Below, piece by piece: positions 969-60,189 of a stretch of DNA of 64,000 nucleotides. The position numbers were made by a program, and so were the translations under genes. The stretch is from Amphiscolops sp. MND2022. Lineage: Eukaryota. The notes under the pieces were generated by a model. That model had not been told where the DNA came from. It searched no databases and saw only the letters and a list, made by a program, of their open reading frames with translations. The stretch spans positions 61,320,001 through 61,384,000 of the forward strand of contig OZ076409.1 in the NCBI GenBank assembly GCA_964187785.1, read 5' to 3'. Numbering within the stretch: position 1 is the stretch's first letter; each line of letters opens with the position of its first letter.

Positions 969-1371
969 ACTCCTGACTAAGTGTGGTCCCTACAAAAATT
1001 ATCCAGCCGGCCTGAAAGCTCCTTACTAAGTGTGGTCCCTAGCAAATTTAGAATAGTCAACGTGGAGCAAACATTACATGTAGTTCAAAGCAGCAAAATT
1101 CAAATTACTAGCTTTTAGTGCTGTTACAGCCAATATGTATGGAACTTGATTTGAAGACGCTAGCATATTTGTTGTATGGCTCGGTCGCTCCGCTCCTTTA
1201 ACCAAGTAGCAACATTGAGGCATGGCCATATGGCACGTCGCTCCGCTTCGCTTCGCTCATGCATTCAGGACATTAGGGGAATGTGAACATACCTGACTAC
1301 GTTATAATACTAATTCCCACAAAATATGCAGGGACTACGATTATATTACAGGGACCACACTTAGTAGGGAG
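969..1371. mobile_element. Foldback/MITE with ACTAAGTGTGGTCCCT arms carrying cassette A
   Basis: ACTAAGTGTGGTCCCT at ~976 and ~1025 is inverted as AGGGACCACACTTAGT at ~1350-1365. Cassette A lies at 1163-1307. The right end abuts the truncated Bel/Pao RT. Confidence 0.65.
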
Positions 1372-1374
1372 GGA

Positions 1375-4300
1375 CGATGTCATCTAGTTCGTCTGCACGC
1401 TTTGGGCGGCTCTCGGAAATTTGTCGGCACTGTCAGTTGCGGTCCCCTTCAGAGCGTTATTTGTGCAAGTCGGAGATCCCTTTGACCTAAAGATGTGTCT
1501 TACGTACTGAAAAACAGCAACTTCAGTTAATGGATCCTCCCGCCATAAAAAACGAATGGACGGTTGGTCTTTCGGTATAACTCCCATTTGTAAGAACACG
1601 CCTTCAAGGTCGGCGGACACGGCCTTGGGAATTGACAGAATCTGAAGAGGATATGGATCAAACTTTGCAGTAGATCCGGACCGGTTAGAAGCGCGTTGTT
1701 CAAATAGTGTCCATGGAACTTTGCAGCACCATTGAGAACTCTTATAGCTTTGCCCGGTTTGTGCGGGTGTATTACGGGGTGACGTGGCAAGTACCATTCA
1801 CGACAGTTATCGGTTCGGAAGCATTCGGTCTTATCGACTCGAACGATGTACCCCTTTTCAAAATCATCTTTGATTCTCTTGCTGTACCTCTCTTTCAGTT
1901 GAGGATCTTTCCCAAGCCGGCGTTCTAACTACTTAAGTTGGTCAAGAGAAGAGAAGTAGTTGTTCAGCAACGTACTTTCTTCATCGGCCCACAACATCTC
2001 AACTTGGTAACGGCAGCCATCGTTGAATGTCGTCTCTTCGTAGTCAACTTGCTTGTAGGAACCATATGACTCCAGGTCATACCAGCTGCGAAGATCTTCG
2101 GCAAGAATAGAGTTGTTCTCTGAGCTAGTGACAGCTTTGAAACAATTCGAGAAAAGTCGCGTGGTGGAAGGAAGCGTACCACTCATTACCCAACACAACG
2201 GTGAGCGGACGGCTATTGGAGTATTCGGACGGTCGGCTTCGAAGTCCTCCAATGGACGGATACAGTGAAGGACATCCTGACCAAGGATCATCTCAACGTC
2301 TGAATAGCTGTACTTGCTGAGGGGGATCGGCTCTGAATGCGGGTAAGTCGTTTTCAATTTTACAATGTCCATAATGTCGTTTCCAACTTTCAAATCATCT
2401 CGAACGTAAAAAGTGACAGGAAACGATGAACAAAAGCCACCAGAATGAACGGGTGTCAACTTAAGCTCAGCTGTTCCCGAATCGATCACTTGTTGAGAGT
2501 TTTTTCCGGGTACGCTTAATTTGGTTGCTGAGCCCTTAACTTGTAGTTTGTCGGCTGTTCTTCTTGAAAACCATGAATGACTACAAGCAAGATTTTTTTC
2601 GGTGCTCGACGGCGATGGCAATTCGACTCATGTTATTTGCAACAAGCCTTTGACGTCGGTTATGGAAGGCAAACCGGAGCTTTCGCTGCCAGTTTGTCTC
2701 TGACTGACCTTTGTCGTCTTACTTTGAGAATTTTTTGCGTCCCAAGGGCTTTTCTGTGCAAAAAAGCTGTCAGAACCGTGAAGTAAAGGGTTATGAGAGC
2801 TCCTACAACCGTCTTTGGTGCATTTGTTTGGTTGCGGGCATTGCCGGAAAGAATGTCCTTCGCAGCAGAGTTTGCTCTCAGCGGCTAGCTTGGTTTTCTC
2901 TATCGGCGTTTTTTGGCGAAATACTGTACAACGCCAGAGCGGGTGGCTTTCCTTACAGACTACACATTGTTTCTCCTTTTTACCTTTGGCGACAGCGTTT
3001 ACTTGGGTACTGGTGGTCGCTGCAAAACTCTTGGTTCCTGTTCTGTTCTTGGTTATGGTAGTGACAGGAACGTCCTCGGTTCTCGGTTTATTGGAGGTGG
3101 CTTTCATTTTTCGTGAGCTTCTGCTTTCTCCTTTAGCCAACCGTTGAAGTCAATCAATGTCGGCCGATCCAAATTCCGTTTGACGGTGTTAGTTGACCAC
3201 GCATCCTTCAAATTTGGCGGAAGATTCAGAACCACTTGGCCCAGGAGGGAAGCACTCACTCGACAAATCCTGCAGGTAGTTCAACGATCGGAAAACACCA
3301 ACCAGTAAGAAGTTGTGGCAGAATAGCTGATGATGCTGACACTATTGTGCATCTTAACCGGCGGATAGTTGGCAAGTTAATGGAGGTAGGCACTAACAAC
3401 AGTGTGAGGTTGCCCAAACTTTCGTTCCAAGGTTTTCAGCTTGTCTTTGTACATGGTACCACAGTATGCAAACTCGGCGATAGCAGTCTTTGCCTTACCG
3501 AACACCAGTGTCTTCAGGTAGAGCAGTTTCACGTCATCAGTAAGGGGGCTGAATCGATGGCACTCTTGAACTGGCCGAACCACTCGTGCCATTGAAGTGG
3601 ATCTCCACTGTATTGTGCCAGTTTCCATTCCGGGAGGAGGTCCCTTTTCGATGACGCTAACAGTTGCGCAAGATCCTGAAGAGTGAAACTGTTAGTTACT
3701 GGTTGCGATTCGGTGATGAACGTAGGGGGTGCATACGGCGATGCATTTGAAGGAATGGCTGGGAAGGTAATTGGTACTGGTGCGCTGACCGGTGCGGGCA
3801 CTGTTGTAAGAGACGTCGGGTTAATATAGTATACGGTTCCTCCAGCGGTTACTGGAAAAATAGGCGAAGCTGTTGGGGCGACACTAGTAGTCGGCAAAAC
3901 TGTCGGGAACACGGCGGGGTTCGTAATTACCGGAGTTGTGGTCACAGACGGGTTTCTTGGTCCTATCGGGAATGTTTAGGCTGATAAGTTTGGAAGAAGA
4001 TAACTTGCCGGAACGGTGACTGTTGAAATCGGAAATGACGTGGCGGTCGCCAAGGGGGCCGATGCTGTAGCAGTTGCCGATAGAGCAATTGTCCGCTGAA
4101 GTGTTTTGGTTGATTGGGATACTTGGACGTGGCCAGTGTTTTGTAGGTAAACTATCGAACCTCGTCCCGTAACTAAAGGCACGTTGTTAGTCGTTGGTGC
4201 GGTTGGAGAGGCTACAGGAGTCACTACTGGGATAATAGGTAGTGGGGTTGTTGTTGGAGCTTCTCTGTTGACGGAATTTTGTGCTGCAGTAGTGATGGTC

Positions 4301-5838
4301 ACGGCGTTGGGGTCTATAACTCCAAAGTTTGTGGGATCACTTGCAGTTGCAACAGGAGAAATTTTGCCCACTCGCTGACCCTGACAAGATCGTCAACTTT
4401 AGTTGAAGCGGCTAGTTGCGACAAAGTGTCTAGAAACTCCGATAGAGCGTCCGACAAGTCCTCAGTCAGTTCAAGCTCAGTGAGTGTTGCTTCAGCTAGT
4501 TTCTTTCGATTTTCCTCTTCTAACTGTTTCCTCTTCTACTCGAAGTGTTTCCTCCTTCTTGAGTCGGTCGGTCCTCAGTCTAAAAAATTCTTGTTCTTTT
4601 TGAAGACGTTCAAAATCCAACTCTTGCTGTTGCTTTGCAATTCTAAGGGCGGCTTTGTTTTGCCTTTCTATCTCCTTCTTACGTTGCTTGGCATTTAGCA
4701 AGACTCTTTGTTGCTGACTGGATGTTCTTGATTGTCTGGATGTCCTTGAATCTGACGTTTTGCTTGGCTGCTTGCTCTTGGTGAGAGTCGTTGACGATTG
4801 AGATGCTCCATCGACGGGCGGTCATTGATTGATGTAATCCCGGACCTTCTTTAAAATCCCATCATTTCGAGTGGTCAGTTCGTTCAACCAAGTTTCCAAA
4901 TCTTGGTTAACGAGTGACGGTCTTCTGTTTTGCTAGCTAGTCCGAAAAGTTGCTCAAGCTTGACAAACAGTTTGGTCATCGCTTCATCACAGGAAGTACC
5001 AAATCTTTCGACGCAGACACGTCTATCTTTGTTCCCCACGGCATCTTGGACTTTTTCTTCCAATAACTTTAACTCGGTCTCGGCTTTGGCACGACTTTCA
5101 AAAAGTTTTTTAACTTTGTCTTGCTTGGCGTCGGCCATTTCCGTCGTGAACTTTCGTCAGAAAATGAATCAAGTTAGTAAGAAAAGTGTTAAATCAAAAA
5201 GAACTAGAAAAATTTTCTTCGACGGCGTAAACCAAGCAATTAAGCTTAGACACAGCTAAACGGAGAAAGATTTCGGTTTGACGGTAACTGTGTGAAATTG
5301 ATGGAAGCTGTATCTCACAATATCGGCAAGGGTATTTTTTTATTATACGATTTTTTGTTTTTTACAAAAAGTTACAAGACACGGGAGGAAGTCACATGGA
5401 ACGAGACGGCGGTTTAAAAACACGCTCTTCCCGAAAGGCTGATGGTTCGTCCAATACTAAATACCCAAAGGGCAGAAGAAGGCCGAGAGAACTTCAGCCA
5501 GACAATAAAGTCTGGACACCGTCCAAACGACAGGTTAAAAGACGGATAGTAGATTTCTGAGTATCAACCGACACTTAAGTCCGGACACAACTCAAGAAGA
5601 TGGATAATATACTGTAGGAACTTCACCCAGACAATGAATTCCGGACACCGTAACTACAGTACAGAGAAGTTGGGTGGACGGTGCCTAGGACGAAGCAGCG
5701 ACAGCAGCCTTGATAGCCTTTCGGGTGTGTTTACTAGGCCGCTTGGGGCGGCTTTTGTCAGTGATAGCGTCAAGCTCGCTCTCGTTGCGCAGATTAAAGT
5801 CAGTATGCTTTATTTCAATCTCGGGGCTCTAGTGTAAC
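1375..5838 (-). mobile_element. Bel/Pao LTR retrotransposon, frameshifted and 3'-truncated inside RT
   Basis: Gag starts at 5138 (MADAK...). Gag motif PEWKLAQYSGDPLQWHEWFGQFKSAID...LERKFGQP (DUF1759-like); Cys/His knuckles (CVVCKESHPLWRC, CTKDGCRSSHNPLLH); protease region (ACSHSW...ILGQD); Pao RT motifs (HPHKPGK.IRVLNGAAKF, LNNALLTGPDLL, RFLWREDP). Stops just before the YxDD motif. Putative 5' LTR ~5290-5838 with internal repeats and AATAAA; LTR edges are tentative. Confidence 0.92.
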
Positions 5839-7350
5839 GCCTTGTGGTTTTTGAGAAAGTCGGGATCTTTCTGTTTTCTCGTGGAAATGAAATCATCAAC
5901 TATACTGAACACTTTATTGTTCGTGGTTTTTTCAATTTCCTTCAAATTAGGCAAATGTTCGGGGTACGGAATTGATGGCAGTACAGTAGAGCCCGGAGTT
6001 TGTTTTAATTGATTTCAAAATCTCAAATATTTGCGGGACTGTTAGAGGACGGAAATTATTGCTCTCGTGTTTGGAAATACTATTATTTAACACATTGTGC
6101 TAAATGACAATGTCACGTTTGTCGGAAAGATCTTTTGAGAGCATGTTTTGAACTTTCTTTTTCGGGTTTTTTTTTGTGTTGACATTAAGGCTCACGCCCG
6201 GGATAGAGAAAATCTTTTCGTTATAGCCTTTTCGGTTTTTGCGTGTTAAAGTTTCAAGGGCATGATGAATGGAATTTGCCGCTACAATAAACTCCATTGG
6301 TGTTTTTTCAACATATAGCAGAAAAGGCCAAAAATTTTACCTAAAAAGAAGTTTTTTACGCTCGTATGAACGTTTAATATTGATGAAAACGTTAGGTTAT
6401 ATCGACGAAGTTTCAAAGAAACGCCTTGCTACTATGGTTGACAAATTAATACCGCAAAAAGGACATTTAAAAGTTTTCAATCAAATTTGGGCTTTTTCTA
6501 TAACCAGTTTTGTAGCAGCTAACGACCTTCGGGGCTTTGGTGCCTTCTCAACTAAGAGAGGCACTACAATAAGCATTAGGACTGACGCAACAAAGACTCT
6601 TTTTGATGTTTTTGTTGTTCTCGGGTAGCAACTATCGCTTTCGAAGCCCCTTTGTAGTAATTTCCTCGGGTTGGCGAGATGAAAATTCGACATCTAAATT
6701 TTGGGCTCAAAATATTTGTTCGAGTCGTAACAAATTCGAGATTAATGAAAGTTTCTCCAGCAGTTCTAAGCCGTCAATTGGACCAACGCTTCCTCGCTGA
6801 GGTGAGTGAAGAGTAAAGCCGAGGAAGAGTTGAACTATTCTGCAAGTGAAACGGCGGAGGAATAAAAATTATACTTGTGTATACTTCTTAGGGGCTGAAA
6901 AACTTGTAACAGAACCCATACATCTGCATTGAACCAAACAGAATTGAATGGGCGAATGGATTTGCCTCTCTATGGCCACCATGAAATTACTATAGAATGG
7001 TCGGTTTCTCTATAGATCGTTTTGAGAGTCAAAAAGGAAGAGCTATGGCGAATTGAATCTTGGCTTTATACTGTCGCAAAATGAATCAATGTATATAGTA
7101 ATATGACATAACTGACAAAAGATCAAATAATGTTAGTCAACAAAAATCACAACAGTAAACATAAATAGCAAGGCCTTTTTTTCAAGGTTATTTTACCGAA
7201 ATCGAGGAAATATTTCCAAAATATGAAATATTTTTACATGACCGGAAATCGAACCTGATCCGAACGCATTTTGTATTAATCAGATGCGGACGGATTAACG
7301 CGCCTTGAAAATGTTCGATTTCTAATTGCTTTTAATCTTATTGCTTGTCA

Positions 7351-7870
7351 ACATTATATGAATGTATATACTTAGAGGATTGTCTCTACAACTGTTTGGA
7401 CACTTCAGGTTTTAAAAAAATACCATAGTTTTTTGATAATATTGTCCAAAATAGCAGAAATTCACATTTGAAACAAGGTAAAATCGTATAAAAAGGACCC
7501 TATTTCAGCGCAAGTTTTGTCCACTGTAAAATCTAATGAGCAACTTTTAACTGACAGCCAATGTAATGGATATAGGATTATGTCGACATCAGTTATTTTA
7601 TTTGACCAAAATTCCAACGCAAACTATGTCGACATAATGGTATTTGAACCTTGTGTTTCTTATTTCCCCCCTGCCGCAGTTTGGGGGGAAATAGATGGCA
7701 TGGTCCGTAAGGAGAAATCGTTTGGGATCACAGTCAGTAGTACCGAAATTTCTATTGAATTATCAGTAACAACCAATCAAATTGCAGTATTTTATAATTC
7801 TAACTGCAACAGAAACTCATCGCTGATAGTGGCGGGGAATTAACATTTCCGCGCTCACTGTGGGGGGAGG
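7351..7870 (-). repeat. Dispersed unclassified repeat 'family E' (G-run/hairpin-rich)
   Basis: Reverse-complement match to 16220-16511/17381-17480/17665-17776 and to 51133-51377 (e.g. GATGTCGACATAATCCTATCCATTACATTGGCTGTCAGTTAAAAGTTGCTCATTAGA). Confidence 0.8.
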
Positions 7871-8104
7871 CGGGGGTCTCGAAGTAATTACAGAAAAAAA
7901 ATGATGATACATTGAAAGATGAGATGATGACATCACTGATGTAGTAAAAAAATACGAAGATGAAGTCGTTGCAACATAAAATGTAATTCAAGTATATACT
8001 TCAACCAACTTTACTGAAGTGTGTTAACCCATCTGAAATTGACAGCAACCTCTTTCGACTAAGGTTTTTAAGTTTCAATTAAACAGCACCCAAGACTTCA
8101 TTTT

Positions 8105-10727: not shown

Positions 10728-11036
<309 letters not shown>

Positions 11037-13504: not shown

Positions 13505-13548
<44 letters not shown>

Positions 13549-17776: not shown

Positions 17777-18164
17777 GGTGTCCGGACATTACGCCCAAAG
17801 ACATTACGCCCAAGGACATTACGCCCAAAACGGACATTACGCCCAAATGTAAATTACGCACAAGGAAATTACGATAATGTAATCAGCTATGCTCACATAC
17901 CCCTAGTGCCCTAAATGCAGGAGCGAAGCGAAGCGGAGCAACGTGCCAATATAGCCATGCCTCAATGTTGCTACTTGGCGAAGGGAGCGAAGCGACCGAG
18001 CCATACAACAAACATGCTAACCTCTTCAAATAATAACCTGAAAAAAATCGCTGCTATTCTCTTAGAATAGCCTAATTTCCTTGGGCGTAATTTCCGTTTG
18101 GGCGTAATTTCCTTGGGCGTAATGTCCTTGGGCGTAATGTCTTTGGGCGTAATGTCCTAGAACC
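17777..18164. mobile_element. Foldback element (MULE/Phantom-like) with GACATTACGCCCAA arms carrying cassette A
   Basis: GG...CC termini; arms built of ~15-bp tandem subunits; 9-bp TSD ATTATAAAT / ACTATAAAT (17768-17776 / 18165-18173); cassette A at 17874-18017. Confidence 0.85.
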
Positions 18165-21789: not shown

Positions 21790-23220
21790 TGCTCTTCCAC
21801 TTACAGAGAATAGAGGATCATTTAGACTTTATGGACCTGTGTTTGTGGAATAAGTGTCATAAAACATTTGTTTTATAAAAAGATCCTCGGAAATAAAATG
21901 ATAATTAAAAAAACATCTATACATTTCACGATCTGTAATAAAAGAGTTTACGAAATCGTACAGTGTCGGCATACTTTTCCAAGAGAGCTGGATAATAAAA
22001 CTTGTACAGGTTCTCAAGAAGTACAAGTTTTTTGGCATTCCAAATTTGTTTCCAAAAGAAAACTATAAGGCGCATCCAAATTGTTAGCAATTCTCTTAGT
22101 TTTTTTCCATTCAATAATATTGTTTTCCAATAAGTCTGCCTGCGATTTTGGGCCGAACGGTGAACCAAAAATAAAAAGTGCATCTTTCGTTGGTGATTCC
22201 CAAAAAACGTTTTGGATAGATGCTAAAGCTGTCAATAGTCGTTTTTCAACGATGACTCCAAGGAAACTATTTTGAATTTCGTGGGTGTTTTCCGCTTCAA
22301 CGATTTTCGTTACTTTTTTTCCATCATCGAGGTACCATAAGGATTTTCGACTCTAAATTGTCAATGAGATCCGGACTGGAATCCGACAATAGAGCTGGAG
22401 ACTCCTGATAGTTTTGTTGGGTACCTCCACAAGATTTGATTACCGAATCACCGTGAAAAAGAAACTTTGATTTTTGTACGTCGAGTATGTAAGTTTTTCA
22501 AAAATTTTCTCGATAATGAATTGTCGGTTTTTTGAATTGAAATCGTTTTCAAAGTCATTTTTCAAAATGAAGTTTTCTTTGGGCTGGGATTTTCTATCAG
22601 ACAACGGAAACAAGTGAGGCCATTTCAGCGCCCTTTTTCTTCCCTATCTTGCTTGACGTGATTCGAAGACATGGTATCTGGCGCATTTTGCGGACAACCG
22701 ACGGAAAGTGTTGCATACAGCGATCGGAGGACATAGGGCCTTTTTAAGCACAAATAAAATTTGTTACAGCTCTGAGAAAATTCATTCCAGTTTGGCCGTT
22801 CATTCAAAGTTTGGAGCGAAATGTCGTTGTGGAATGACCTAAGAGCCTCGTGGAGGAAGAAGTACGAGGTGGAGAAACTCGAGAAACAATCGGTTTTGTG
22901 GGGATCGGAACAGAGCAAAGTTCCCTTTGCGGATGTTTAATCTTGAGGTTCGCGTAGTTGTTGACAGTGAAATTGCAATATTCATCGTTGTCAATTGCTG
23001 TCTGATTCCTGCCTTAACATTACCTTCATCTAATTCAGAGCAGACGAAGTCGTCGACCCATTTGGCTTTTCTGTTGCTGTTTTCCGTCGCGTTCCGATTT
23101 TTTCTCAATGACACCATCCCGTATGCGAAGGTTTTTTTTTGCACTGAGTGATAACATCTGACGTTTACCTTCACAGGTTATTTGGTATGAAGTCATTTGG
23201 CTGATTTTTTTTCGTCGAGT
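21790..23220 (-). mobile_element. Degraded non-LTR retrotransposon RT (CRE/R2-group-like)
   Basis: Fragments LDEGNVKAGIR, DFENDFNSKNRQ, WYLDDG, FGSPFG, PKNLYFLRT spread across frames with many stops. The clade is inferred from WYLDDG and GSPxG. Confidence 0.7.
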
Positions 23221-23378
23221 CATTTGGCCTAAACATCGGTAGCCAAATGAGGATAAAATTGAGCCAAATAAAGCAATGGCTCAAAACAACACTCTTAAAG
23301 ATCAAAACTGATATGAATTCTCAACAGAATGTTTAGGAGGTAGAGAAAAGGAATGTTTTGATTTTGTATGAAGAGTTA

Positions 23379-23516
23379 GCATTTTTGTTGTTTGACTCAC
23401 TTGGTCGCTTCGCTTTCTTCGTCAAGTAGCAAAATTGAGGCATGGCCATATGGGACATCGCTCCGCTCCTACTTAGGGCACAAGGGTATGTGAACATAGC
23501 TGACTACCCCATTATA
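23379..23516 (-). repeat. Cassette A copy (degenerate)
   Basis: Matches GGTCGCTTCGC...GTAGCAA.ATTGAGGCATGGCCATATGG...GGGTATGTGAACATA.CTGACTAC. Flanked by weak GAGCCAA(A/T)T repeats. Confidence 0.8.
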
Positions 23517-23586: not shown

Positions 23587-24070
23587 GGGCACGGTAATAC
23601 GTTCGAACGCATAAGTTCGAATTTTAATTTCGAATGGACTAAGTTCGAATTTTCCAAAAACCGGAATAACTTCGAATCACTGTGTTCGAACTTTGAACTA
23701 AGTATAAAACGTGCCTCTGATTTTCCCCCATTTCATCTTGTGCCCCGCTTATGGTCCCATCTTGCTAAGGGAGGTCGAACAGGAGCAAAGATCTACCGGG
23801 AACGGAGATCGCGAAGCGATCGTAGTGGGAGCTGGTCTTTGCGACGACGAGGGCGAGCGTACATAAACCGGATATGCCCCACATTTCAGTTTTTAGATTT
23901 CTTTAAATCCTAGGCGGTGGAGCTCTCAGGATCTTGTGTGAAGGATGTCCAGTTTACACCGGATATGCCCGTCCTGAAAATTGGAACTTGGTATCTTCAA
24001 ACTATTCCATTCGAAGTTATTGCACTAGTTCAAATTCGAGCTTAGTAAATCGAACTTATTGCCCGAAGCC
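23587..24070. mobile_element. Foldback element with AAGTTCGAA arms carrying cassette B
   Basis: Arms of repeated (T)AAGTTCGAA / TTCGAACTTA. Flanking direct repeat AATTAAGCCA at 23577-23586 and 24071-24080 (9-10 bp TSD). Cassette B at ~23711-23882. Confidence 0.75.
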
Positions 24071-26350
24071 AATTAAGCCAAGTGTCCAAATGAATAAGGC
24101 AGAAGGACTTTAACCCAAGTGACTACAATACAAGTGACCAATTTCCCTCGAGGTAGTTTTTCTTGGTAAAAAACACAGCTTAGAGTGGAGAGCAAAAAGC
24201 ACCACAAGGCTTTTTCGACGGGGTTTCACAGTTATGCTGAAGCGCGTGAAATTGAGATTTATCGTTAAAAAATATACAGTTTATACACTTTTCAAGCGGT
24301 GGCCATGGAAGTACATGGTTCTTTAGGCGAGATCAGTGAAATATTTTTGGGCTAGGGACAATTTGCCGAAAGTCATTTTGCCGAAACCCAATTCAATTTG
24401 CCGAACGTGAAGGACAATTTGTCGATTTTTTTTGGCAATTTGTCCTTTTGAATTTGCCGAATATTGTAAGGACAATTTGCCAAATACCTAGCGTTTTCAA
24501 ATAACAATGTTTTTGACCGTCGGATATGCCCCCATTTCCTCTAGTGCCCCGCGGGTGGCTGTAAATAGGTTGAGTTTTTCTGGTTGAAAGGGCAGAGGTC
24601 GAACCTTTTGATCGAATCGCAGGGATCGGTCGATCTTGATCGGAGCCTTCGGATCGCAAAATTCTTTGTTTGCCTCAAGTCGATTGACTATCATAGTGTG
24701 GGGCATATGCTGTGAATGCACGCTCGCCCTCACCGTCGCAAAAACCAGAGGCATGTAAATCCGCTAGGTGACTAGGTGAGCTAGGAACTGGGTAACTAGG
24801 TAAATATTGACTAGTTGACTGGGTATTCTATTTTTAAAAACTGGGTAAATCTTTTCGAAATACTTTTGTCGAAGTAATTGCGTCGATGCCATTGCAAATG
24901 TAAAATGGTCAAACAATGTTTTGGCTGTCGGATATGCCCCATTTCCTCTAGTGCCCCGCGGCCACTTGGGGCCGCTTATGTTCCCATCTTGCTAAGGGAG
25001 GTCGAACAGGAGCAAAGACCTACCGGGAACGGAGATCGCGAAGCGATCGTAGTGGGAGCTGGTCTTTGCGACGGTGAGGGCTAGCGTACACAAACCGGAT
25101 ATGCCCCACATTTCAGTTTTTCGATTTCTTTAAATCCTAGGCGGTGGAGCTCTCAGGACCTTGTTTGAAGGAAGTCCAGTTTACACCGGATATGCCCGTC
25201 CTGAAAATTGGAACTTGGTTTCTTCAAACTATTCCATTCGAATTTATTGCACTAGTTCATGTTCGAGCTTAGTAAATAGAACTTATTGCCCGAAGCCAAT
25301 TAAGCCAAGTGACCAAATGAATAAGGCAGAAGGACTTTAACCCCAGTGACTACAATACAAGTGACCAGTTTCCCTCGAGGTGGTTTTTCTTGGTTAAAAA
25401 AACAGCTTAGAGTGGAGAGCAAAAAGCACCACAAGGCTTTTTTGACGGGGTTTCACAGTTATGCTGAAGCGCGTGAAATTGAGATTTATCGTTAAAAAAT
25501 ATACAATTTATACGATTTTCAAGCGGTGGCCATGGAAGTACATGGTTCTTTAGGCGAGATCAGTGAAATATTTTTGGGCTAGGAACAATTTGCCGAAATT
25601 CAATTTGCCGAAACCCAATTCAATTTGCCGAACGTGAAGGACAATTTGCCGATTTTTTTTGGCAATTTGTGATTTTGAATTTGGCGAATATCGTAAGAAC
25701 AATTTGCCAAATACCTAGCGTTTTCAAATACCAATGTTTTTGACCGTCGGATATGCCCCCATTTCCTCTAGTGCCCCGCGGGTGGCTGTAAATAGGTCGA
25801 GTTTTTCTGGTTGAAAGGGCAGAGGTCGAACCTTTTGATCGAATCGCAGGGATCGAATGGAATGCGGTCGATCTTGATCGGAACCTTCGGATCGCAAACG
25901 TTCTTTGTTTGCCTCAAGTCGATTGACTATCATAGTGTGGGGCATATGCTGTGTATGCTCGCTCGCCCTCACCGTCGCAAAGACCAGAGGCATGTAAATC
26001 CGCTAGGTGACTAGGTGAGCTAGGTACTGGGTAACTAGGTAAATAATGACTAGTCGACTGGGTATTTTATTTTTAAAAACTGGGTAAATCTTTTTGAAAT
26101 ACTTTTGTCGAAGTAATTGCGTCGATGCCATTGCAAATGTAAAATAGTCAAACAATGTTTTGGCTGTCGGATATGCCCCATTTCCTCTGGTGCCCCGCGG
26201 CCCCTTGGGGCCGCTTATGTTCCAATCTTGCTGAGCGAGGTCGAACAGGAGCAAAAACCTAGCGGGAACGGAGATCGCGAAGCGATCGTAGTGGGAGCTG
26301 GTCTTTGCGATGGTGAGGACGAGCGTGCATACACCGTATATGACCCCATA
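23745..26350. repeat. Tandem duplication with a ~1.23 kb period and breakpoints inside cassette B
   Basis: CTTGCT(A/G)AG(G/C)GAGGTCGAACAGG recurs at 23761, 24988 and 26227 (offsets 1227 and 1239); the intervening sequence is duplicated. Confidence 0.93.
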
Positions 26351-26897
26351 TTTATTTATATGACACCATATATTAATTTATAAGGTACCAAGTTTCGTCT
26401 AAAAGCAGATAGTTTTGATCTATGTTGTCGTTAATTGTCTCAATTTACAGTTTTCTGACCATTAGTTTTGCTAAGTGTCTCAGAATTCAATGTACCTAGA
26501 CGATTTTCCTGAAAAACCTAGTAAATTTTCCACCCAGTAACGATTTATATAGTCAACTAGTCAACTAGTTGATTTCTCACACTCCAAAGCCCAGCTCCCA
26601 CTAAGATCGCTTCGCGATCTCCGTTCCCGCTAGGTCTTTGCTCCTGTTCGACCTGGGCTTAGCAAGATGGGAACATAAGCAGCCCCATGGGGCCGCGGGG
26701 CACTAGAGGAAATGGGGACATATCCGAGACACGTTTTAAACTTTTCTAGAAAATTCTATCTGCGGCAATTCGGTTGCTTTCCCAAAAATCAAAATTTCGA
26801 TCCGAGTTGTTTCAATCCTATTCAAAAATTTGGTATGTCGACCCGAGGACTAACTCTGATTTTCGATCCCGTTCCTTCGACGTATTTCCGCCCACCC
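25780..26897. mobile_element. Foldback element with GGGTGG...GGTCGA arms (nest level 2)
   Basis: Perfect 9-bp TSD GTGCCCCGC (25771-25779 / 26898-26906) lying inside cassette B. Carries an inverted cassette B split into 25937-25987 and 26586-26725. Confidence 0.85.
25988..26585. mobile_element. Foldback element with CTAGGTGA-type arms (nest level 3)
   Basis: 9-bp TSD AAAGACCAG / AAAGCCCAG (25979-25987 / 26586-26594) inside the level-2 cassette B. Arms of ~8-bp CTAG(G/T)TGA units; own cassette B at 26168-26349. Confidence 0.78.
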
Positions 26898-28356
26898 GTG
26901 CCCCGCGGCCTACTGGGGCCGCTTATGTTCCCATCTTTCTAAGCGAGGTCAAACAGGAGCAAAGTCCTAGCAGGAACGGAGATCACCAAGCGCTCGTAGT
27001 GGGAGCTGGTTTTGCGACGGTGAGGGCGAGCGTGCATACACCGTATATGACCCCAAATTAGATGAGGAGAAGTACCTAATCTATTTTAAACGCTTCGCAG
27101 GAGCAAAATTCGGATACGGGACAATTTGCCGAAAGACAAATTGCCGAAACCAAATTTGCCGAACGTGAAGGACAATTTGCCGAAAATTATTCGGCAAATT
27201 GTCCCGCATCCATTTTTTTACGAGTCTCTGTAAAATGCTTTGTCGTTTGCACGACAATCAACGAGACGGCAGCCTTTTGTGGCAACGGATCTCAAGGGCT
27301 CTTCAGATTGTCCATGTGGCCTATTTTCTAGGAACTGTGAGGGACAGAGATGCCTTTCAAAGATATTGTCACTTTTAGACATTTTTTCGTAAACCTGTAT
27401 ATAATTGCAACTTTTTTGAAACTAGTTTCTGCCAATCGACTGGGATAGTGGCTGGGGCGAGCGGGAATAACGTCCAAGGAATAACGTCTAAATTCAAAAC
27501 AGGAATAACGTCTAAAGGTTTAAACGTTATTCCCGTTTTTTTTTTTACGGTTTTCCTGTTTGTTTAGACGTTTTTCCCGAGAGTGAAAAAATTGATTTCA
27601 AAATTTATCGGATTTGAAAACTGACTATTATCAGATTACATGGTAGAATTCGAGATCATCGAAGGCCGACGTAAAAGCGCAGTTGTCTACATCTGCAAAA
27701 ACAGACTTGTTAAAAGCTAGGGGCGGGAATGTCGTCTGAGGAGTAACGTCTAAATTTTACTTATTTTTCAGGAATAACGTCTAAAGATTTAGACGTTATT
27801 CCCGTTTTTTAGATGTTATTCCCGATTTCGAAATATTGTTTTTTGTGCTGAAAAGTTTTGCCCTTGCACTAGTTTTCAGGAATGAACTATGAAATAATCG
27901 AAGGCCACGAAATACGAGCAGAAGTCTATGTGTCTGATGGGTACTTGTACCTAAATAAAAAAAAAACGTCCAAAATATCAATAATCTATGCAAATACGTC
28001 CGAAAAAAGGAATATCCTATAAAATCCAGAAAATATCCGAAAGTCATCACAATACGACTGAGAAACGGGGAAAAACCTATGAAATTGGAACAAAATCATA
28101 TCGTTTAAGATCTAAAACTAAGTGATATAAAATATAAAACGTGCCCTGGATGTGTCCCCATTCCTTCTAGTGCACCGCGGCCCCTTGGGGCCGCTTATGT
28201 TCCCATCTTGCTGAGAGATGTCGAACAGGAGCAAAGACCTAGCGGGAACGGAGATCGCTAAGCATATGCCCTACCCCGCATACACCGCATATGACTTACG
28301 TTGTGATATTTTCGCTTTAAGAAAACCTTTTTCGAAACATGAATAACGTCTATATA

Positions 28357-28556: not shown

Positions 28557-28559
28557 CTG

Positions 28560-29441: not shown

Positions 29442-29785
29442 GGGTGGCTGTAAATAGGTCTAATTTTTCTGGTCAAAAGGACAGAGGTCGAACCTTTTGA
29501 TCGAAGTGCAGAGATCGAATGGAATGCGGTCGAATTTTATTGTATTTGTTGTATGGCTCGGTCGCTTCGCTCCCTTCGCCACGTAGCAACATTGAGGCAT
29601 GGCCATATGGCACGTCGCTTCGCTTCGCTCCTGCATTCAGGGCACTAGGGGTATGTGAACATATCTGACTACGTTATAAAAATTTCGATCCGAGTTGTTT
29701 CGATCTAATTCAAATAATTTGGTATGTCGACCTGAGGACTAACTCTGGTTTTCGATCCTGTTCCTTCGACCTACTTCGCCCACCC
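29442..29785. mobile_element. Foldback element with GGGTGG...GGTC arms carrying cassette A
   Basis: Same arm family as 25780-26897. Perfect 9-bp TSD CGCTTTTTA (29433-29441 / 29786-29794). Cassette A at 29543-29679. Confidence 0.88.
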
Positions 29786-32340
29786 CGCTTTTTAGACATT
29801 CCACTTTTTAGACGTTATTCCGCTTTTTAGACTGTTATTCCACTTTTTAGACGTTATTCCGCTTTTTAGACGTTATTCCACTTTTTAGACGTAATTCCCG
29901 TTTTTTAGAAGTATTCCCGTTCATTTCAGACTTAGATGTTATTCCTTTAGACGTTATTCCCGGTGGACTTTGAGACGTTATTCCTCTTCCCCGTTGAAAG
30001 CGAAAATATCATAATGTGAGGCATATGCTGTGTATGCACGCTTGCCCTCACCGTGGCAAAGACCAGCTCGCGATCTCCGTTCCCGCTGGGTTTTTGCTCC
30101 TGTTCGACCTCGCTTAGCAAGATTAGAACATGAGCGGCCCCCAAGGGGCCGCGTGGCACCAGAGGAAATAGGGCATATCCGACAGCCAAAACATTGACCA
30201 TTTTACATTTGCAATGGCATCGACACAATTACTTCGACAAAAGTATTTCGAAAAGATTTACCCAGTTTTTAAAAATAAAATACCCAGTCAACTAGTCAAG
30301 TTTTACCTAGTTACCCAGTATTTTAAAAATAAAATACCCAGTCAACTAGTCAAATTTTACCTAGTTACCCAGTACCTAGCTCACCTAGTCACCTAGCGGA
30401 TTTACATGCCTCTGGTCTTTGCGACGGTGAGGGCGAGCGTGCATACACAGCATATGCCCCACATTATGATAGTCAATTGACTTGAGGCAAACAAAGAACG
30501 TTTGCGACCTGAAGGCTTCAATCAAGTTCCCAATTTCAGACGTTATTCCGTTTCTTAGACGTATTTCAATGATTTTTGGACATTTTAGGCCTGATTTTAA
30601 ACATTTTTTCCCGATTTTAAACGTTATTCTATGATTGATGTAAGCGCATCAGAGAAATATATAGAGTGGTCAGAACAAAGCCAGAGTGACTTATGGACAC
30701 TAAAATGCCCACAGTAGGCAGTAAAAGAAATCATCAAAAGTTATTTCTGTTTTTCAGACGTATTATGATGGTTTTATGATATTTTGGACCTTTTCCGATT
30801 TAGACGCTTCCCGATTTTAGACGTTATTCCTCTTTTTAGACGTTATTCCCCTGTTTAGACGTTATTCCCGTTTTTTTGACGTTATTCCCTAATATTTCAG
30901 TTTAGATGTTATTCCTTTAGACGTTATTCCCGGGGGACCTTTAGACGTTACTCCCTCTAAGTGGCTGGAATGAGTAGTTTGTTGGTTGTGTTTTTTGTTT
31001 CTAATGGGATAGTGGCTGGTATGTGGTTTCCTCCTTTCGTTGCAGACTACGGGTGTGTGTCCTCTCCACCTAAGATTATGTCACACATGAAACTTGATTG
31101 ATTGATCAAGATCCATGATATCTGATACATAGAAAAGTTCACAAATTAGTTTTGGGTATCAAGTTTTCAGGTAGGGGATCCGTGAATTTGTAGGAACTCT
31201 TTTCAAGTTAACAACACAATTAAGTTAACAATTAAAAAGGTTTCCTGGTCTAAATTTATCATCATGACAGGGATTTTGTTCACTGAAGAATACCAACATT
31301 TAAATTCGGCAAGCACAATCCTTTTTTGGTGCTTCATTTTCTCATCCCCCCGTGATCATCCAATAAGCATACAATTAGTTTTTTTCTTTTTTATCCAATG
31401 GTTTTTTATTATTATCAATAATTGATAGCGTACTTTTAATAATTGTAATAATTGATTTTTTAAAATGTGACGTGGTATGTGTATGTATTATCATACTGAT
31501 TCTTAATTTACTTGTATCAGAAGACTTTAAATTCGGCAAGGCTCCTGCCCTCCAATTTTGATAAATTGGTTCCTTTTATATGGACCCATCCATTGCAAAG
31601 CCGACAATTTACCCTGAGGGCTGCAGAGCGTTTCAGGTTTCGTTGTTTTTAATCGAAACTCAACCTCAAAACCTAACCACTTGCAGGAATACCACATTTG
31701 GATGTGTGCAAATCTCCCCAAAAAGGCGCAACAATAGTGCGCTTATAGTTAGATCTCAGGTTATCAGATCACAGGCGTATGTCAAATTTAGGTCTATGAT
31801 GATCCCCGAGATCAGATCTTAGGTTTAGATGCTAATAGACTTGGCACTGTTTTAACATGACACCGGATTAATGATGACGATCTATGTCATCTGAGAGAAA
31901 AACAGCCTAAATTTTGACAAGTGCTTCATTTCCAGATTTGAACAATAGCGTTGATTTTTAGGTGATCACTGATGATTATCAATGAAAGCGTAATGTACAA
32001 CTTCAACAAATCTGGCCAATCTCATTGTGGATAGATTCGGTGAAAACAACAGCTGTTCCGATTCTTGAACAAAATAAAGTATTTACTGGAAACATCAGAT
32101 AACCTATTTCTTCAACTTCACAAGCTAGAAACGTTCACATCGAGAAATGTTTTCAAAAAAGCGCTTTCCTTGCCGAAAAAACTATTTTTGCCATAAAAAT
32201 TTTGGGCTACATTTTTCTGTTGGAAGTTGGGTTTTTTCTGGGAGTTTTTTCGATGTTGCGTCTCGTTCTCCTTCTCCTGTCAATTTTTGCAGTTAGTGTC
32301 AAGTGTAGTTTTAGCGGACTTTTTTTCACTTTTGCCAGTA

Positions 32341-33250: not shown

Positions 33251-33255
33251 CCATA

Positions 33256-50137: not shown

Positions 50138-50300
50138 CAGTAAACCCTCGATTATCCGCCACCATCGGTCCAGCGCGAACTATGGCGGATAAATGAGAGT
50201 GGCGGTTAATCAAGGGAGCTTAGACACGGGTGGTATAGCAAAATGTCCCCGTAGATTTGTGGCGGTTGACCAAAGGTGGCGGATAATCGAGGGTTTACTG
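50138..50300. mobile_element. Tigger/pogo-type MITE (163 bp)
   Basis: Perfect 26-bp TIR CAGTAAACCCTCGATTATCCGCCACC; TA on both sides. Confidence 0.92.
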
Positions 50301-50585
50301 TAAATGTACGCTAGTAGCAAATGGGCTATTACAGTGGAGTGAGTCCGCTTAAACCGATAACGAGGCGACCAGAGGTTTGGTTCGGTTGGAGCGATTTATC
50401 GGTTTACAAATTCAATGTTCAAAAATCTGAATTCAAAATTTTTTCTGAACAAAAAATGAATCAAGTAAACTTGATATTGTCAGAACTCGATATTGTCAGA
50501 GTTATAGCCTTTTGTTTCATTATTGAGTCCCTGATTTTAGAGAAACAATGTCCATTGTTTTGAATCCGATTCTGGTCGATTTATA

Positions 50586-51132: not shown

Positions 51133-52540
51133 ATCCAATAAAATAATTGATGTCGACATAATCTTATCCATTACATTGACCGTCAGTTGAAAGTTTCTCA
51201 TTAGAGATTTTATAGCGGACAAAATTTGCGCTGAAATAGGGCATTTTTATACGATTTTAGGTCGTTCCAAACGTGAATTTCTGCTATTTTGGACAATAAT
51301 ATCAAAAAACTATGGTAATGTTTTGCCTGAATTGTCCAAACAGTTGTAGAGACAATCCTCTAAGTTTATACATTCATTACACTTGCGATAAGCAAGTGTT
51401 ATGGGAAAGTGCGGGTGCTTTTTTTTTCCGCGCGACAACTCTCTCGTTTCAGACCGCAAGTCGCATAATTCAGACTTTTTTGGTCTAGCGGTAAGATGCT
51501 TGCTTTTCAACCCAGAGGGTCCGGGTTCGAACCCGTGCCTATGCGCTAATTTTTTTTTACAAAATTTTCGAAGCAGAAGATTCTCACTTTTTTCGACAAT
51601 ATGAGACTCCCCCTCCCCCCTTTTCGGCTTTTTGAGACTTATTTTCGAAAATTTTTTAATGTCCCCAAAGGGTCCTCCCTTCATTTTTTTGATATTTTGC
51701 AACAGAACGAACGTTAGAAAATTCAAAAGGGTCTCTTCTTTCAGATTTTTCGGCACTATGAGACTGTTGAAAATTCGCATTTTTTTCGAAAATTTTTCGA
51801 AGTCTTCAAATGGTCCCCCTCAATTTTTTTTGAAATATCGCAAAAGAATGGATGTTAAAAAATCTCAAAGAACCCCCCTTTCACAGTTTTCGGCCTTGTG
51901 AGATTTTTCAAAAGTAATAATTTTTGTCTTAAAGTTAGGTTTTCTCAGGCCCAGCACGCTATATCCGATTTTTTTTTCAAAGACCGGTGTTTTTCATATG
52001 CGACTTTTTCAATTTTTTTTTCATCGAAGTCCCCCCTCAATTTTTACCAAAAATGGTGACTCTAAAGGACTCGTCAAGGTTTTCGGCACTATGAGACTTC
52101 AAAAAAATTGCCGGTGACCTTCAAAAAAATTTTTCGAAAATATTTTGGAAAAATTTCGGAAAATTTTTGAAAAAAATTCAAAAAATTTTCCTTCAATTTT
52201 CTGTTTGTTTTTAAGGTTTTCCGTTGAGGAAGATGGGTTTTTTGCTGTTTTCAGTTGGGGAAGAATGGTTTTCGAGACTTATGCCCATCCCTTCGGGTAT
52301 TTTTTGGCGCTGTAAAATTGATGAAATTTTAACATACTCCTTTTACCCTTGGTTCTACGTATGATATTGCTTATTTGGTTTTCAAAACTTCGCAAGTGTT
52401 TGCGAAGCACGGCTTCGCCTCTGTGTATAATATTCTCTTATCTCCTATCAGAAATATTTTTATTCAAGAACAAAATGTGCTTTCGTGCTGGGGGGAATTC
52501 CCAACAAGGTGTACCTGGGGGGATAGATGACATGGTCCAA
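51133..52540 (+). repeat. Family E repeat, interrupted by 51378-52426
   Basis: Colinear with 16310-16511 plus 17381-17560; lacks the hAT (empty site). Confidence 0.8.
51378..52426 (+). mobile_element. Helentron/Helitron2-like element, family D, with tRNA-like A/B boxes
   Basis: 5' palindrome ACACTTGC-GATAA-GCAAGTGT; 3' subTIR TCGCAAGTGT; hairpin GCGAAGC-ACG-GCTTCGC; end CTCTGTGT. No TSD relative to the empty site CATTCAT|ATAAT at 17468-17479. A box at 51481-51491 and B box at 51524-51534. Confidence 0.85.
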
Positions 52541-57101: not shown

Positions 57102-57341
57102 AGGATTGTCTCCGCCACTTATCTCTGACACATGGTCCAAATTTTTCGATCTGCGAGTCGTTCACAGCTGTTTTTATTCACATAAATTAGAAGTTTGCGA
57201 AGATGTTTCTGGTATTAGTAGCTACTAATACCAGAAACATCTTTGCAAACTTTTAATTTATGTGAATAAAAACAGCTGTGAACGACTTACAGATCAAAAA
57301 ATTTGGACCATGTGTCAGAGATAAGTGCCGGAGACAATCCT
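57102..57341. repeat. 240-bp spacerless palindrome
   Basis: 120-bp arms centred between 57221 and 57222; 6 mismatches by manual comparison. Confidence 0.97.
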
Positions 57342-57753: not shown

Positions 57754-58892
57754 TTTTTAGTCCGGGCTTTTATAAGTAAAAGAGCCCGACCGTTACAGTC
57801 ACTCTTTTTTTAAGACAGACTCGAAGCGACGAACGTTAATTTATGCGGCAAACGGGGAGCGCATTTAAGATAGTGCAAAGGGTCCCCCTTTCAGTTACTC
57901 CATTTTTATCGTAAGATACAAAACCGGACGAGACTATAGGGTCCCCTCTGAGTTTTTTCGGCACTAGGCGACTTTTTCGAATTTGTTTTTGTCTCCAAAG
58001 GGTCCCCTTCAAATTTTTTGATATTTTACAGCAAACTGAAGTTTGGAAAAGCCCAAACGGTCCTCTTTCAAGTTTTTCGGCCCTCCCATTCTTATTTTTC
58101 GATTTTTCGTTTTTTTTTCGAAAATTTTTTAATGTCTCGAAAGGGCCCCCCTTCAATTTTTTGCACATGACGAAGTCAATGTGCATTGCAGTCCAGCTAA
58201 GTAAGTTTTTTTTCCACTATAGTCAACTTCATAATGAGCGCCTTTTAGAAAAAAAGCCAAAACCCCAGAGAGATTCGAACCTGCAGCCTCCCGGTTGCAC
58301 GGCATAAGTGTTGACCACTGTGCCATAGGGACGTTATTGAACAAAGTTGAACTGTTGAATATATACGATTTTTCGGCATTCGTATATAAACTATTAATGT
58401 ATACATTCGTATATATTAAAATAATCGATGTCTTCGTCATGTGTTGCGAAGCACCGCTTCGCCTCTGTGTTAAATATTTTGCAACATAATAGATATTTCA
58501 CAATCCCAAAGGGTCCCCTCTTTTAGATTTTTCGGCACGATGAGACTGTTCAAAATTGTTATTTTTTGTCTGAAATGAGGTTTTCTCAGTGTATATCTAC
58601 CAATATTTTTTTCCAGAACTATCCGAAACTTGGTCTTAATACCCTGAGTAAAGCGCTATATCCGAATTTTTGACGTTATATCCGAATTATATTCCGTTTT
58701 ACCAAGGAGGAGGCAGAGGTTTGAACAGCGCTCCCATTTGGGCCAGCACGCTATATCCGAAGTTTGAGTCGTTACACCCCGCAACAAAGTGGATTTTCAA
58801 AAAACCCAAAGGGTCCCCCTTTTACAATTTCAAAAAGTTTGAGCTTTTTGAGCCTTAGATATGGCGCCGACTTTAGACGTTCCCGTCTTGTT
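57754..58892 (+). mobile_element. Family C Helentron-like element with a nested family D copy
   Basis: TTTTAGTCCGGGC...GCCCGAC head; AAGGGTCCCC units; 3' GCGCCGACT-TT-AGACG-TTCC-CGTCT-TGTT. Confidence 0.78.
58161..58470 (+). mobile_element. Family D-type element (~310 bp) with an antisense tRNA-like sequence
   Basis: 5' hairpin GCACATGAC-GAA-GTCAATGTGC; 3' subTIR CTTCGTCATGTG; GCGAAGC-ACC-GCTTCGC-CTCTGTGT end. tRNA-like sequence on the minus strand at 58332-58262. Confidence 0.8.
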
Positions 58893-59150
58893 CCGTCTAA
58901 TAATTGTCTCATTTCTTCAATGTGTTTTCAATATTCCATTAATTAGAGTCTTTAGTTATACCTATCTTTATTCAAAGTATTTTCGATTTTTGATCTGTTA
59001 GGTGGCTCTTTTCAATCATCAATATATTCAAATTTAACAGCATTTGTTTATCGTTGACTGCCCATACTTCATATGTGGAAAACGACGTTATTCTACTCGT
59101 CGTTGCGTTTTGTCTTGTGTTAAATGCCAATGTCGTCATAACTAATTTTT

Positions 59151-59631
59151 ATTATTTCTGCGATAGCAGGAGTAATATTGAAATCTGAACTTGGCCACTT
59201 TTTTCAGTCAACTTTACGTACGCGATTCGAGTGCCTACTGAAAAATTCAGATATTTGGTTCAGCGGTGTGAATAAGCTTGAGATTTAAATTTCTCAAGTT
59301 GCCGACGACAATTCGTTTCTCGTGCGATGAAACGAGCGAGCGGTAATGATGCTTTCGTACGCAAAGTTATTGAAAAGAAGCGAACGAGTGTTAAATAATC
59401 GTTCGCCGAGAGCTTCGCCCGCATTCAAATGCGAATACAAACCCTCGTCTACGCTTAGTTATATTTTCTTTAGTCCGAGAAAAATTAAAGGCGGTGTAAA
59501 CTGGTACCGTCATTAATTGAGCGCTATATATTGATTAAACAAGAGTGTTTATTTATTCCTGATATGCTTCTATTAATGAACAGGAAAGCCTAAAAGCAGA
59601 AATAATACTATGCTCCACAGGGGCCTATATT
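59151..59631 (+). mobile_element. Family A HINE-like element
   Basis: ATTATTTCTGC head; GCAGAAATAAT subTIR; hairpin GCTCC-ACA-GGGGC. Confidence 0.8.
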
Positions 59632-59742
59632 CAATGAGTGAAAAAGTAGATAAAGATAATTATATATTCGATGTGTGGAAAAAATCAGCCAGTCAGTGTA
59701 CACCCAAATTGGTGGTTTTGTACCAAGTGTACAAACCATTTT

Positions 59743-60189
59743 GGTGGTTTCCCAAATGACATAAATGCAAATAACATAAAAATAAATTAATTCCCAGAAA
59801 ACATAAAAGTACATTGAATTCCTATTTAACATAAGAATAAAACATTATTATAACGTAGTCAGATATGTTCACGTACCCCTAGTGCCCTAAATGCAGGAGC
59901 GAAGCGAAGCGGAGCGACGTGCCATATGGCCATGCCTCAATGTTGCTACTTGGCGAAGGGAGCGAAGCGACCGAGCCATACAACAAATATGCAAACCTTT
60001 TCAAATAAATCAAGTTCCAACATATTGGCTGTAACAATGATTCAGCGCAAGCGAGAAAATGACGCAAGGTTGAATTTCAATTTTCAACCAATCAGAAGTG
60101 CTTAATTGTTTTATGTTTTCTGGGAATCAATTTATTTTTATGTTATTTGCATTTATGTCATTTGCATTTATGTCATTTGGGACGTAATC
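59743..60189. mobile_element. Foldback element with CCCAAATGACATAAATGC arms carrying cassette A
   Basis: ~57-bp inverted arms (59750-59808 versus ~60110-60182); cassette A at 59848-59992. TSD not resolved. Confidence 0.75.

Follow-up and report, generated by a model that had tools for sequence, protein, structure and literature searches.

A conserved core shared by several families of terminal-inverted-repeat elements in a 64-kb window of the Amphiscolops sp. MND2022 genome

The window analysed here is a stretch of 64 kb from Amphiscolops sp. MND2022 (GenBank assembly GCA_964187785.1, contig OZ076409.1, positions 61,320,001 to 61,384,000 of the forward strand; all coordinates below are counted from the first letter of the window). 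It is repeat-dense, with a GC content of 38% and approximately 29% of its length self-repeated, and it encodes an HSP20 protein, an InaF-motif protein, which belongs to an animal family, a piece of an HSP70 protein and a Tc1-type transposase. It also contains five copies of a short sequence, here called core A, most of which lie inside elements with terminal inverted repeats (TIRs). The five copies had been reported in an earlier note on this DNA, and BLAST and profile searches confirmed them at the positions given in that note. The central observation of the note, that the interior of these elements is conserved while their ends vary, also holds, and is extended here by a second core, B, and by evidence that cores have been exchanged between arm families. 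The analysis covers this one window together with 14 low-depth contig pieces from two coded sequencing runs (X1 and X2, each of small share).

Core A and the elements that enclose it

Copies 1, 3 and 4 of core A (A1, 1163..1307; A3, 23369..23516; A4, 29543..29679) are on the minus strand, and copies 2 and 5 (A2, 17874..18031, including a short tail extension; A5, 59848..60036, including a longer one) are on the plus strand, the strand being defined as the direction in which the head of the core is read first. By BLAST, identity is 88-94% among A1, A2, A4 and A5, and 76-81% for A3, the most diverged copy. A profile built on all five copies found no sixth copy in the window (the next match had an E value of 0.96), and a tree of the five has supports of only 62 and 65. 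The cores of the window have a GC content of 52-59%, compared with 38% for the window as a whole, and none of the five A cores is split by an insertion. The head of core A (TTATAACG, sharp at 1307 in A1 and adjoining the arm in A2) is constant to within a few bases. The tail is a staircase, ending at +0 in A4, which adjoins both arms of its host, at about +15 in A2 and A3, and about 40 bp further on in A1 and A5, which have this extension in common (1122..1162 on the minus strand in A1; 36/40 positions match); a piece from run X2 extends past the tail as A1 does. On this side the cassette is longer than the length of about 140 bp originally proposed for it.

Core A is built of two modules of about 60 bp, each ending in GAGCGA..GCCATA (module similarity 0/1000 shuffles), which meet at the palindrome GCCATATGGC (59921-59930 in A5). 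Of the 13 run pieces listed, six depart from the core at 59911-59925 with letters to spare, and thus half-cores exist elsewhere. The motif GCGAAGC is found 29 times where 4.2 occurrences are expected, and 16 of the 29 are in A or B cores; the longer motif GG-GA-GC-GAA-GC-GA-CC is perfect in three of the five A copies. On one strand, a sequence of the latter type might form a fold held by sheared G.A pairs; no paper supporting such folding of the GA-rich core motif was found. Hairpin repeats with GCGAAGC are present beyond the cores also, as a two-copy GCGAAGC..GCTTCGC palindrome (52402-52418 and 58446-58462) and a lone GGAGCGAAGCGAAGC (49279-49295). Searches for a structured RNA or ribozyme in the core gave no Rfam family at the gathering score and no match at E<=5 on a core, and ARAGORN found 0 tRNA genes that might form its head. 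Scans for exact patterns of core A gave no match in metagenome contigs, GTDB genomes or plasmids, and no RNA run was listed as containing it. Scans of viral contigs gave a single match, to a 20-base motif in one contig (L001, 65% GC), which was rejected because nothing beyond the motif aligns; a GAGCGAAGCGACC-type motif is present twice in this contig (874-893 and 998-1020), with no wider likeness to the core.

Enclosure was scored where a core lay between inverted arms, or between TIRs flanked by a target-site duplication (TSD). Four of the five A copies are enclosed by this test, which was passed at 38 of 1161 background positions, so that the binomial probability of at least four in five is approximately 6e-6, a value to be read in the light of a threshold chosen after the data had been seen, of background positions that overlap, and of the location of 29 of the 38 passing positions inside the nest of core B described below. 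The inverted-repeat scores of the flanks are 39 for A1, 142 for A2 and 107 for A5, and A4 counts as enclosed because its GGGTG termini are flanked by a perfect TSD of 9 bp.

The host of A1 (E1) has a left arm (966..1040, plus strand) of two GTGTGGTCCCT units and a right arm in two parts, the inner one (1350..1371, minus strand) adjoining a nested TIR element (1372-7706) that has displaced the outer one (7715..7744, minus strand; 0/1000 shuffles). Because the nested element splits the right arm, the true ends of E1 are placed at 966 and 7744, where it is flanked by an 8-bp TSD (958-965 and 7745-7752, 7/8 match). The nested element has an 8-bp TSD of its own (7/8) and termini complementary at 10/12 positions. 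These termini are of the type GGACC/GATG, and the element carries broken open reading frames (ORFs; about 1384-5156), which look like the relic of a long-terminal-repeat retrotransposon; the single ORF scanned had no Pfam match.

A2 is enclosed in an element (E2, 17777..18164) with arms of 15-bp units (17777-17873 and 18062-18164), GG termini and a 9-bp TSD (8/9). E2 is itself nested in a TIR element of another family, H (17646-18248; 8-bp TSD, 8/8), and a second copy of H contains a paralogous empty site for the E2 target (7735..7800, minus strand; left flank 0/1000 and right flank 9/1000 shuffles). E1 and E2 break the two H copies (894-963 plus 7745-7873, and 17646-18248, respectively) at points no more than about 15 bp apart, possibly an insertion hot spot. 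The host of A4 (E4, 29442..29785) has asymmetric arms of GGTCGA and GATCGA units, GGGTGG..CCACCC termini and a 9-bp TSD (9/9), and that of A5 (E5, 59750..60209) has arms at 59750-59808 and 60109-60209 that are complementary at 55/56 positions; the left terminus of E5 is missing, and was not found when looked for elsewhere. The inverted arms reported previously around the core are borne out for E1, E2 and E5, but those of E4 cannot be aligned as an inverted pair (203/500 shuffles), and that element is defined by its short termini, TCGA units and TSD. A3 also lies, probably, between degenerate arms (E3), of which the probable left one (23175..23235, plus strand) consists of GTCAYTTGG units and has its partner at approximately 23560-23586 plus 24071-24145, the two parts being separated by a nested element. 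The E3 arms reach 1-2/1000 shuffles when the nested element is skipped and 119/500 (not significant) when it is not.

Forty-five pairs of arms were tested against shuffles. The arms of E2 and E5 (GACATTACGCCC and CCCAAATGACAT arms) match at 17/19 positions, with 0/500 shuffles for the two right arms and 3/500 for the left arm of E2 against the right arm of E5. A similarity of the right arm of E1 to the left arm of E5 (5/500; AT-rich and in opposite orientation) was put aside on account of multiple testing over the 45 pairs. By these comparisons, the arm families of E1 and E4 are distinct and those of E2 and E5 are related. The claim that four copies lie between unrelated arms thus stands as to enclosure, but its statement that the arms share no sequence fails for E2 and E5. 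Of the two findings that would have told against the note, neither was obtained in full: none of the copies is clearly placed outside a TIR element, and only a single pair of arm families turned out to be related.

Core B and the exchange of cores between arm families

A second core, B, of about 170-200 bp, is present in seven full copies (79-93% alike) and three fragments, all within 23587-30530. In this region at least five unit-array TIR elements are nested like Russian dolls, together with a tandem duplication of 1227/1239 bp and inverted partial duplicates, and younger elements are seated within the cores of older ones. The first copy (B1, 23700..23887, plus strand) is located in a TTCGAA-unit element (23587-24070; 10-bp TSD, 10/10), the second (B2, 24911..25114, plus strand) is within the 1227-bp tandem duplication and is tied to B1 and B3, and the third (B3, 26150..26352, plus strand) is in an ACTAGGT-unit element (25987-26584; GAG termini; 9-bp TSD, 8/9). 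The ACTAGGT element splits the fourth copy (B4, 25932..26744, minus strand) into two pieces (25932-25987 and 26585-26744), and the host of B4, an E4-family element (25780-26897; 9-bp TSD, 9/9), splits the fifth (B5, 25738..27060, plus strand) into two more (25738-25781 and 26892-27060); B4 and B5 are thus each interrupted by another core-bearing element. B5 in turn has a GGACAATTTGCC-unit element as its host (25576-27211; 8-bp TSD, 7/8, of low complexity). The sixth copy (B6, 28129..28304, plus strand) lies among TTTAGACGTT-unit arrays near an assembly gap (28357-28556), its host having no delimited ends, and the seventh (B7, 30011..30196, minus strand) lies next to an ACTAGGT arm, in an inverted duplicate of part of the nest. 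Since B1, B2, B3 and B7 are partly linked by local duplication, the independent hosts of B come to four TSD-bounded families and one without delimited ends. Two short and similar ORF starts are present within the TTTAGACGTT-unit arms (27640-27717 and 27882-28019); we take them to resemble the N-terminus of a FLYWCH-type transposase of Mutator-like elements (MULEs), a likeness for which Pfam gave no support.

A and B are probably distant relatives. All three A heads compared with B4 reach 0/500 shuffles, and five of nine head tests reach <=4/500; the tails are weaker, with three of nine tests at <=6/500. Of 35 A-B pairs, seven exceed every one of the 2306 background windows and 12 are matched by at most one window, none of these pairs involving A3. 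The order of motifs is the same in A and B, with a conserved head and tail flanking a variable middle, and the head boundary is common to all five A copies and to B1, B4 and B6; B2, B3, B7 and B5 begin differently at the upstream end. A direct repeat of 17-19 bp is found near both ends of B (0/1000) and weakly in A (8/1000), about 15 bp inside the head. Similarity between unit 1 and unit 2 of B was not significant (263/1000 shuffles) and was discarded.

E4, which contains core A, and its relative at 25780-26897, which contains core B, have arms that are identical at 84/92 and 97/105 positions (91-92%), and the head of the core faces the same arm in both. A4 and A5, in unrelated arms, are identical at 134/137 positions (98%) and so are closer to each other than are A2 and A5, identical at 135/143 positions in related arms. 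Because the same arms occur with either A or B, and near-identical A cores occur in unrelated arms, no single tree accommodates both; cores have thus been exchanged between arm families, in some cases recently, a conclusion that does not depend on the homology of A and B. The TSDs outside the arms and the empty paralog of the E2 site show that arms and core move as one unit in the hosts that have a TSD. In E4 the core adjoins both arms, whereas the two spacers of its relative measure about 40 and 60 bp. The tail junction of E4 recurs in run X1, indicating that E4 represents a family and is not an artefact of assembly, and a 13-letter head junction of the E2/E5 type was found in run X2. As the run contigs are of low depth, depth gives no copy number, and the near-absent cover on the arms of E5 is not evidence. 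Among the 12 full-length A and B copies in the window, none is demonstrably solo, and no match to a core was found in the other TIR elements of the window, namely the Tc1 element, a TA-flanked miniature inverted-repeat transposable element (MITE) at 50136 and a hAT-like element.

Affinities of the hosts and explanations for the core

The hosts look like non-autonomous Mutator/Foldback elements, all of one superfamily type, on account of their unit-array arms and of the 8-10-bp TSDs outside the arms. An 8-bp TSD alone is compatible with hAT, P or Merlin elements too, and a modular structure like that of the hosts is found in the TU elements of sea urchins. The TSDs match at 7/8 positions in E1, 8/9 in E2, 9/9 in both E4 and its relative, 10/10 in the TTCGAA element, 8/9 in the ACTAGGT element and 7/8 (of low complexity) in the GGACAATTTG host. 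Periods of 15 bp are present in both arms of E2, in the right arm of E5 and in the GGACAATTTGCC arms; the left arm of E1 has two units only, and the arms of E4 are asymmetric. MULEs are defined by a TSD of 8-11 bp immediately flanking the TIRs (PMC6446971), and most foldbacks have been placed in Mutator from the length of their TSD (PMC4079207). The suggestion that the core was recruited by many transposase systems proves too wide: the hosts are of one superfamily type in appearance, and no match to a core was found in the other TIR elements.

Among known systems, as far as the accessible text of each source goes, the Tm1 Mutator/Foldback elements of root-knot nematodes resemble the hosts: their TIRs are composite, built of tandem units of 13-15 bp, their short termini are asymmetric, the TSD is 9 bp long, the interiors are non-coding and insertions are nested; one Tm1 class has a distinctive interior, a histone hairpin (PMC3169594). 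Tm1 differs in that one TIR family there has several interiors, and it has a known Phantom-type transposase (PMC3169594); here a single interior family extends across many families of arms, either core is found in one of these families, and no transposase was identified for the hosts. The Tetris and DAIBAM foldbacks likewise are non-autonomous, with modular arms, a middle domain and TSDs of 8-10 bp, but their middle domain varies in size and composition (PMC4079207), whereas here it is the conserved and shared part. For the Anopheles P-MITEs and the Ozma-derived MITEs it has been proposed that the interior was copied from ectopic DNA, or rejoined through microhomology, during gap repair; those interiors are without identity between families, and the portions of these papers at hand do not describe recurrent capture with a fixed end (PMC1562414, PMC3814204). 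The internal enhancer of a Stowaway MITE (Yang et al. 2009, via PMC3227409), an interior that raises mobility, is a model for the putative function of the core, although it was established by experiment for one family and one transposase type, whereas the core crosses families and is known from its sequence.

The core was also compared with elements that leave no TSD. It resembles HINE/DINE-1 elements in being TSD-less and in having a T-rich end and short hairpin motifs (PMC4067079), and its poorly defined ends and short direct repeats may be like those of non-autonomous Cryptons (PMC3212892). According to the excerpts consulted, HINE-type elements have a pair of subterminal inverted repeats (subTIRs) of 12-15 bp, the 5' one near the terminus, a 3' palindrome 8-35 bp from the end and T-rich targets, and canonical Helitrons have 5' TC, 3' CTRR, a palindrome of 16-20 nt about 11 bp from the end and an A|T target (PMC4067079); Crypton ends are hard to define, with terminal direct repeats of 4-6 bp that animal Cryptons lack (PMC3212892). 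A search of the core for subTIRs gave no inverted match of >=8 bp in five of five A copies, and only internal hairpin stems in B. Most A copies, and B1, B4 and B6, are rich in T at the head end but not at the tail end, and the palindromes are central. Nor does the core have Helitron ends: there is no TC at the head, and CTAR follows the tail in three of five A copies but is then followed by C, with the homology running on, and is absent from B. A positive control for HINE/Helentron-type anatomy is provided within the window by a further family, C, four solo copies of which (33255-33839, 45824-46352, 59145-59634 and 63125-63456) have a subTIR pair, a 5' inverted repeat, a 3' GC stem-loop and T-rich flanks; its GA-rich internal repeats include GCGAAGC. 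Core A differs from HINEs in having neither a subTIR pair nor a 3' stem-loop and in being never clearly solo. A TGAATGCAGG..CGAAGC stretch common to A or B and family C was not significant (105-380 of 500 shuffles) and was rejected as a link between them.

The explanation that we tentatively favour, with a confidence somewhat short of even, is that the core is a passenger middle domain, traded by gap repair and kept as an aid to mobilisation. A and B would be subfamilies of a middle domain shared by several non-autonomous Mutator/Foldback-type elements, and family-specific transposases would, from what is known of transposable elements, bind the unit arrays in the arms. Exchange could occur during repair of the double-strand gap that an element, or a nested insert, leaves on excision, synthesis jumping to another abundant MITE as template and microhomology rejoining the ends; suitably placed breaks would arise where nested elements enter and leave cores. 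Two reports describe template switching during gap repair as a route to ectopic capture (PMC3814204, PMC1562414). Combined with microhomology joining, such switching would leave tails that end at successive points and would remove spacers, as in E4. Composites of arms and core may dominate because the core is a cis-acting mobilisation helper usable by any arm family, whether as a host-factor site, a DNA-bending site or a well-sized spacer for synapsis, with the GCGAAGC mini-hairpin motifs and the central palindrome as candidate working parts; a putative aid of this kind would account for the fixed head, the kept order of motifs and the lack of solo copies.

Several observations weigh against this explanation. 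Gap repair alone does not explain why the head end varies by no more than a few bases. Compared with shuffled sequences, core A shows no gain in folding (z of 0.0 to +1.9 as DNA, +0.6 and +1.7 as RNA) and core B only a slight one (-1.0 to -1.4), values that do not bear on the mini-hairpin idea since ViennaRNA ignores sheared G.A pairs. The homology of A and B is remote, the A profile reaching B only at an E value of 4.1 and the B profile missing A, and all copies of B are located in one 7-kb nest with local duplications and are therefore not independent samples. Unit arrays flank only six of the 12 cores on both sides (background 33/1076). The TSDs were obtained by scanning many offsets, so that the 7/8 cases lean on terminal complementarity, and a convincing TSD is absent for E3, E5 and the host of B6. 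A MULE transposase partner was not identified, the ORF remnants at 27640 and 27882 having one 84-aa match only and no significant Pfam family. Against a core common to all such elements stand a small foldback (112-331), which shares the AT-rich inner arm units of E5 and holds neither core, and the other TIR elements, in which no match to a core was found.

The fixed head is explained better by the rather unlikely alternative that the core moves as a TSD-less module in its own right, of rolling-circle or Crypton-like tyrosine-recombinase type, which targets the centres of foldbacks and is then amplified with them. The sharp head of A and of B1, B4 and B6, the conserved head and tail around a variable middle, the direct repeats near the ends of B (0/1000) and, weakly, of A (8/1000), and the perfect GG-GA-GC-GAA-GC-GA-CC of three in five A copies, with its possible one-strand hairpin, all agree with such a module, and a fixed end opposite a ragged one would be in keeping with copying from one end; the six of 13 listed pieces that leave the core at 59911-59925 point to shuffling of modules at the central palindrome. 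The ill-defined ends of Cryptons, and the lack of terminal repeats in animal ones, are compatible with it also, as far as the source extends (PMC3212892). However, a mobile module predicts solo copies and precise tails, whereas none of the 12 copies is demonstrably solo and the tails differ by 0-45 bp; A has no subTIRs, while family C in the same window is solo with full HINE-type anatomy; B2, B3, B7 and B5 differ at the upstream end; no foldback missing just the core was found, and the ORFs scanned showed neither a recombinase nor a Rep-helicase. The choice that the earlier note had posed, between a functional core and a TSD-less mobile module, is one that a single window cannot separate. An unlikely third account makes the core neutral cargo, its GC-richness (52-59% against 38%) rendering it an insertion hot spot that newly arrived arms capture and amplify in repair, with no benefit to mobility. 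B4 and B5, interrupted by core-bearing elements with 9-bp TSDs, are as this account expects, as is nesting that is rife in the window (E1 and E2 in family H, E4 in the array of another family), yet none of the five A cores is interrupted, and varied ends and cargo would be expected, yet the head is fixed over eight copies and the order of motifs is kept between A and B.

Two further accounts are very improbable. Vertical descent from one ancestral host, with the core as its slow part and rapid turnover of arm units, would be consistent with the relatedness of the E2 and E5 arms and with the equal orientation of the core in E4 and its relative, but the presence of the same arms with A and with B, together with A cores identical at 134/137 positions in unrelated arms, contradicts one tree at any rates; it is contradicted as the sole cause, and an old shared origin followed by later exchange is possible. 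That the core is an ordinary short interspersed element or Helitron landing at random in repeat-dense DNA, or an artefact of assembly, is of similarly low probability: some 29% of the window is self-repeated, and an assembly gap and tandem and inverted duplications lie near the nest of B, but enclosure of four in five copies against 38/1161, the lack of a tRNA or Rfam head and of Helitron termini, and the TSDs, the empty site and a junction that recurs in a sequencing run contradict it within the window. A broader reading, possible though doubtful, is that the core is a family-independent foldback module, either a traded mobility enhancer that binds a host factor or a TSD-less single-strand element residing in arm centres. 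The fixed head, the GA-rich mini-hairpins and the central palindrome would then be recognition signals, and in the single-strand version the core would be a parasite of MITEs that are known to it by structure and not by sequence.

The component parts of this system are of known kinds, and its inverted logic, a conserved interior traded across arm families, was not met in the literature surveyed: no description of one core shared by several TIR families was found in the titles and starts of abstracts covered, and curated repeat libraries may hold some. MITE families are classified by their ends, and their interiors are deemed dispensable, whereas here the interior is the conserved and traded part. 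The window offers a natural two-by-two swap, with different cores in the same arms and the same core in different arms. Should the core raise mobility, the question why certain non-autonomous elements out-amplify their autonomous partners could be put to a direct test; should it move by itself, it would be a transposon specialised on the foldbacks of other transposons. In either case, the shared core would cause families to be merged or wrongly split in repeat libraries for this genome.

Other features of the window

The TA-flanked MITE (50136-50302, 167 bp) contains two interior motifs that were seen beside pieces of core A in runs X1 and X2; a link of these motifs to the loose ends of the run pieces was rejected as weak, and found after selection (11 and 4 of 100 shuffles). 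The Tc1/mariner element (47002-48295) has TIRs, and its transposase is broken into two ORFs. Three tandem copies of a unit of about 1075 bp (11157-14379) lie between the InaF-motif ORF (10728-11036) and the HSP20 gene (14711-15331), which has many close relatives. A near-perfect palindrome of 240 bp (95%), with no spacer, is located at 57102-57341.

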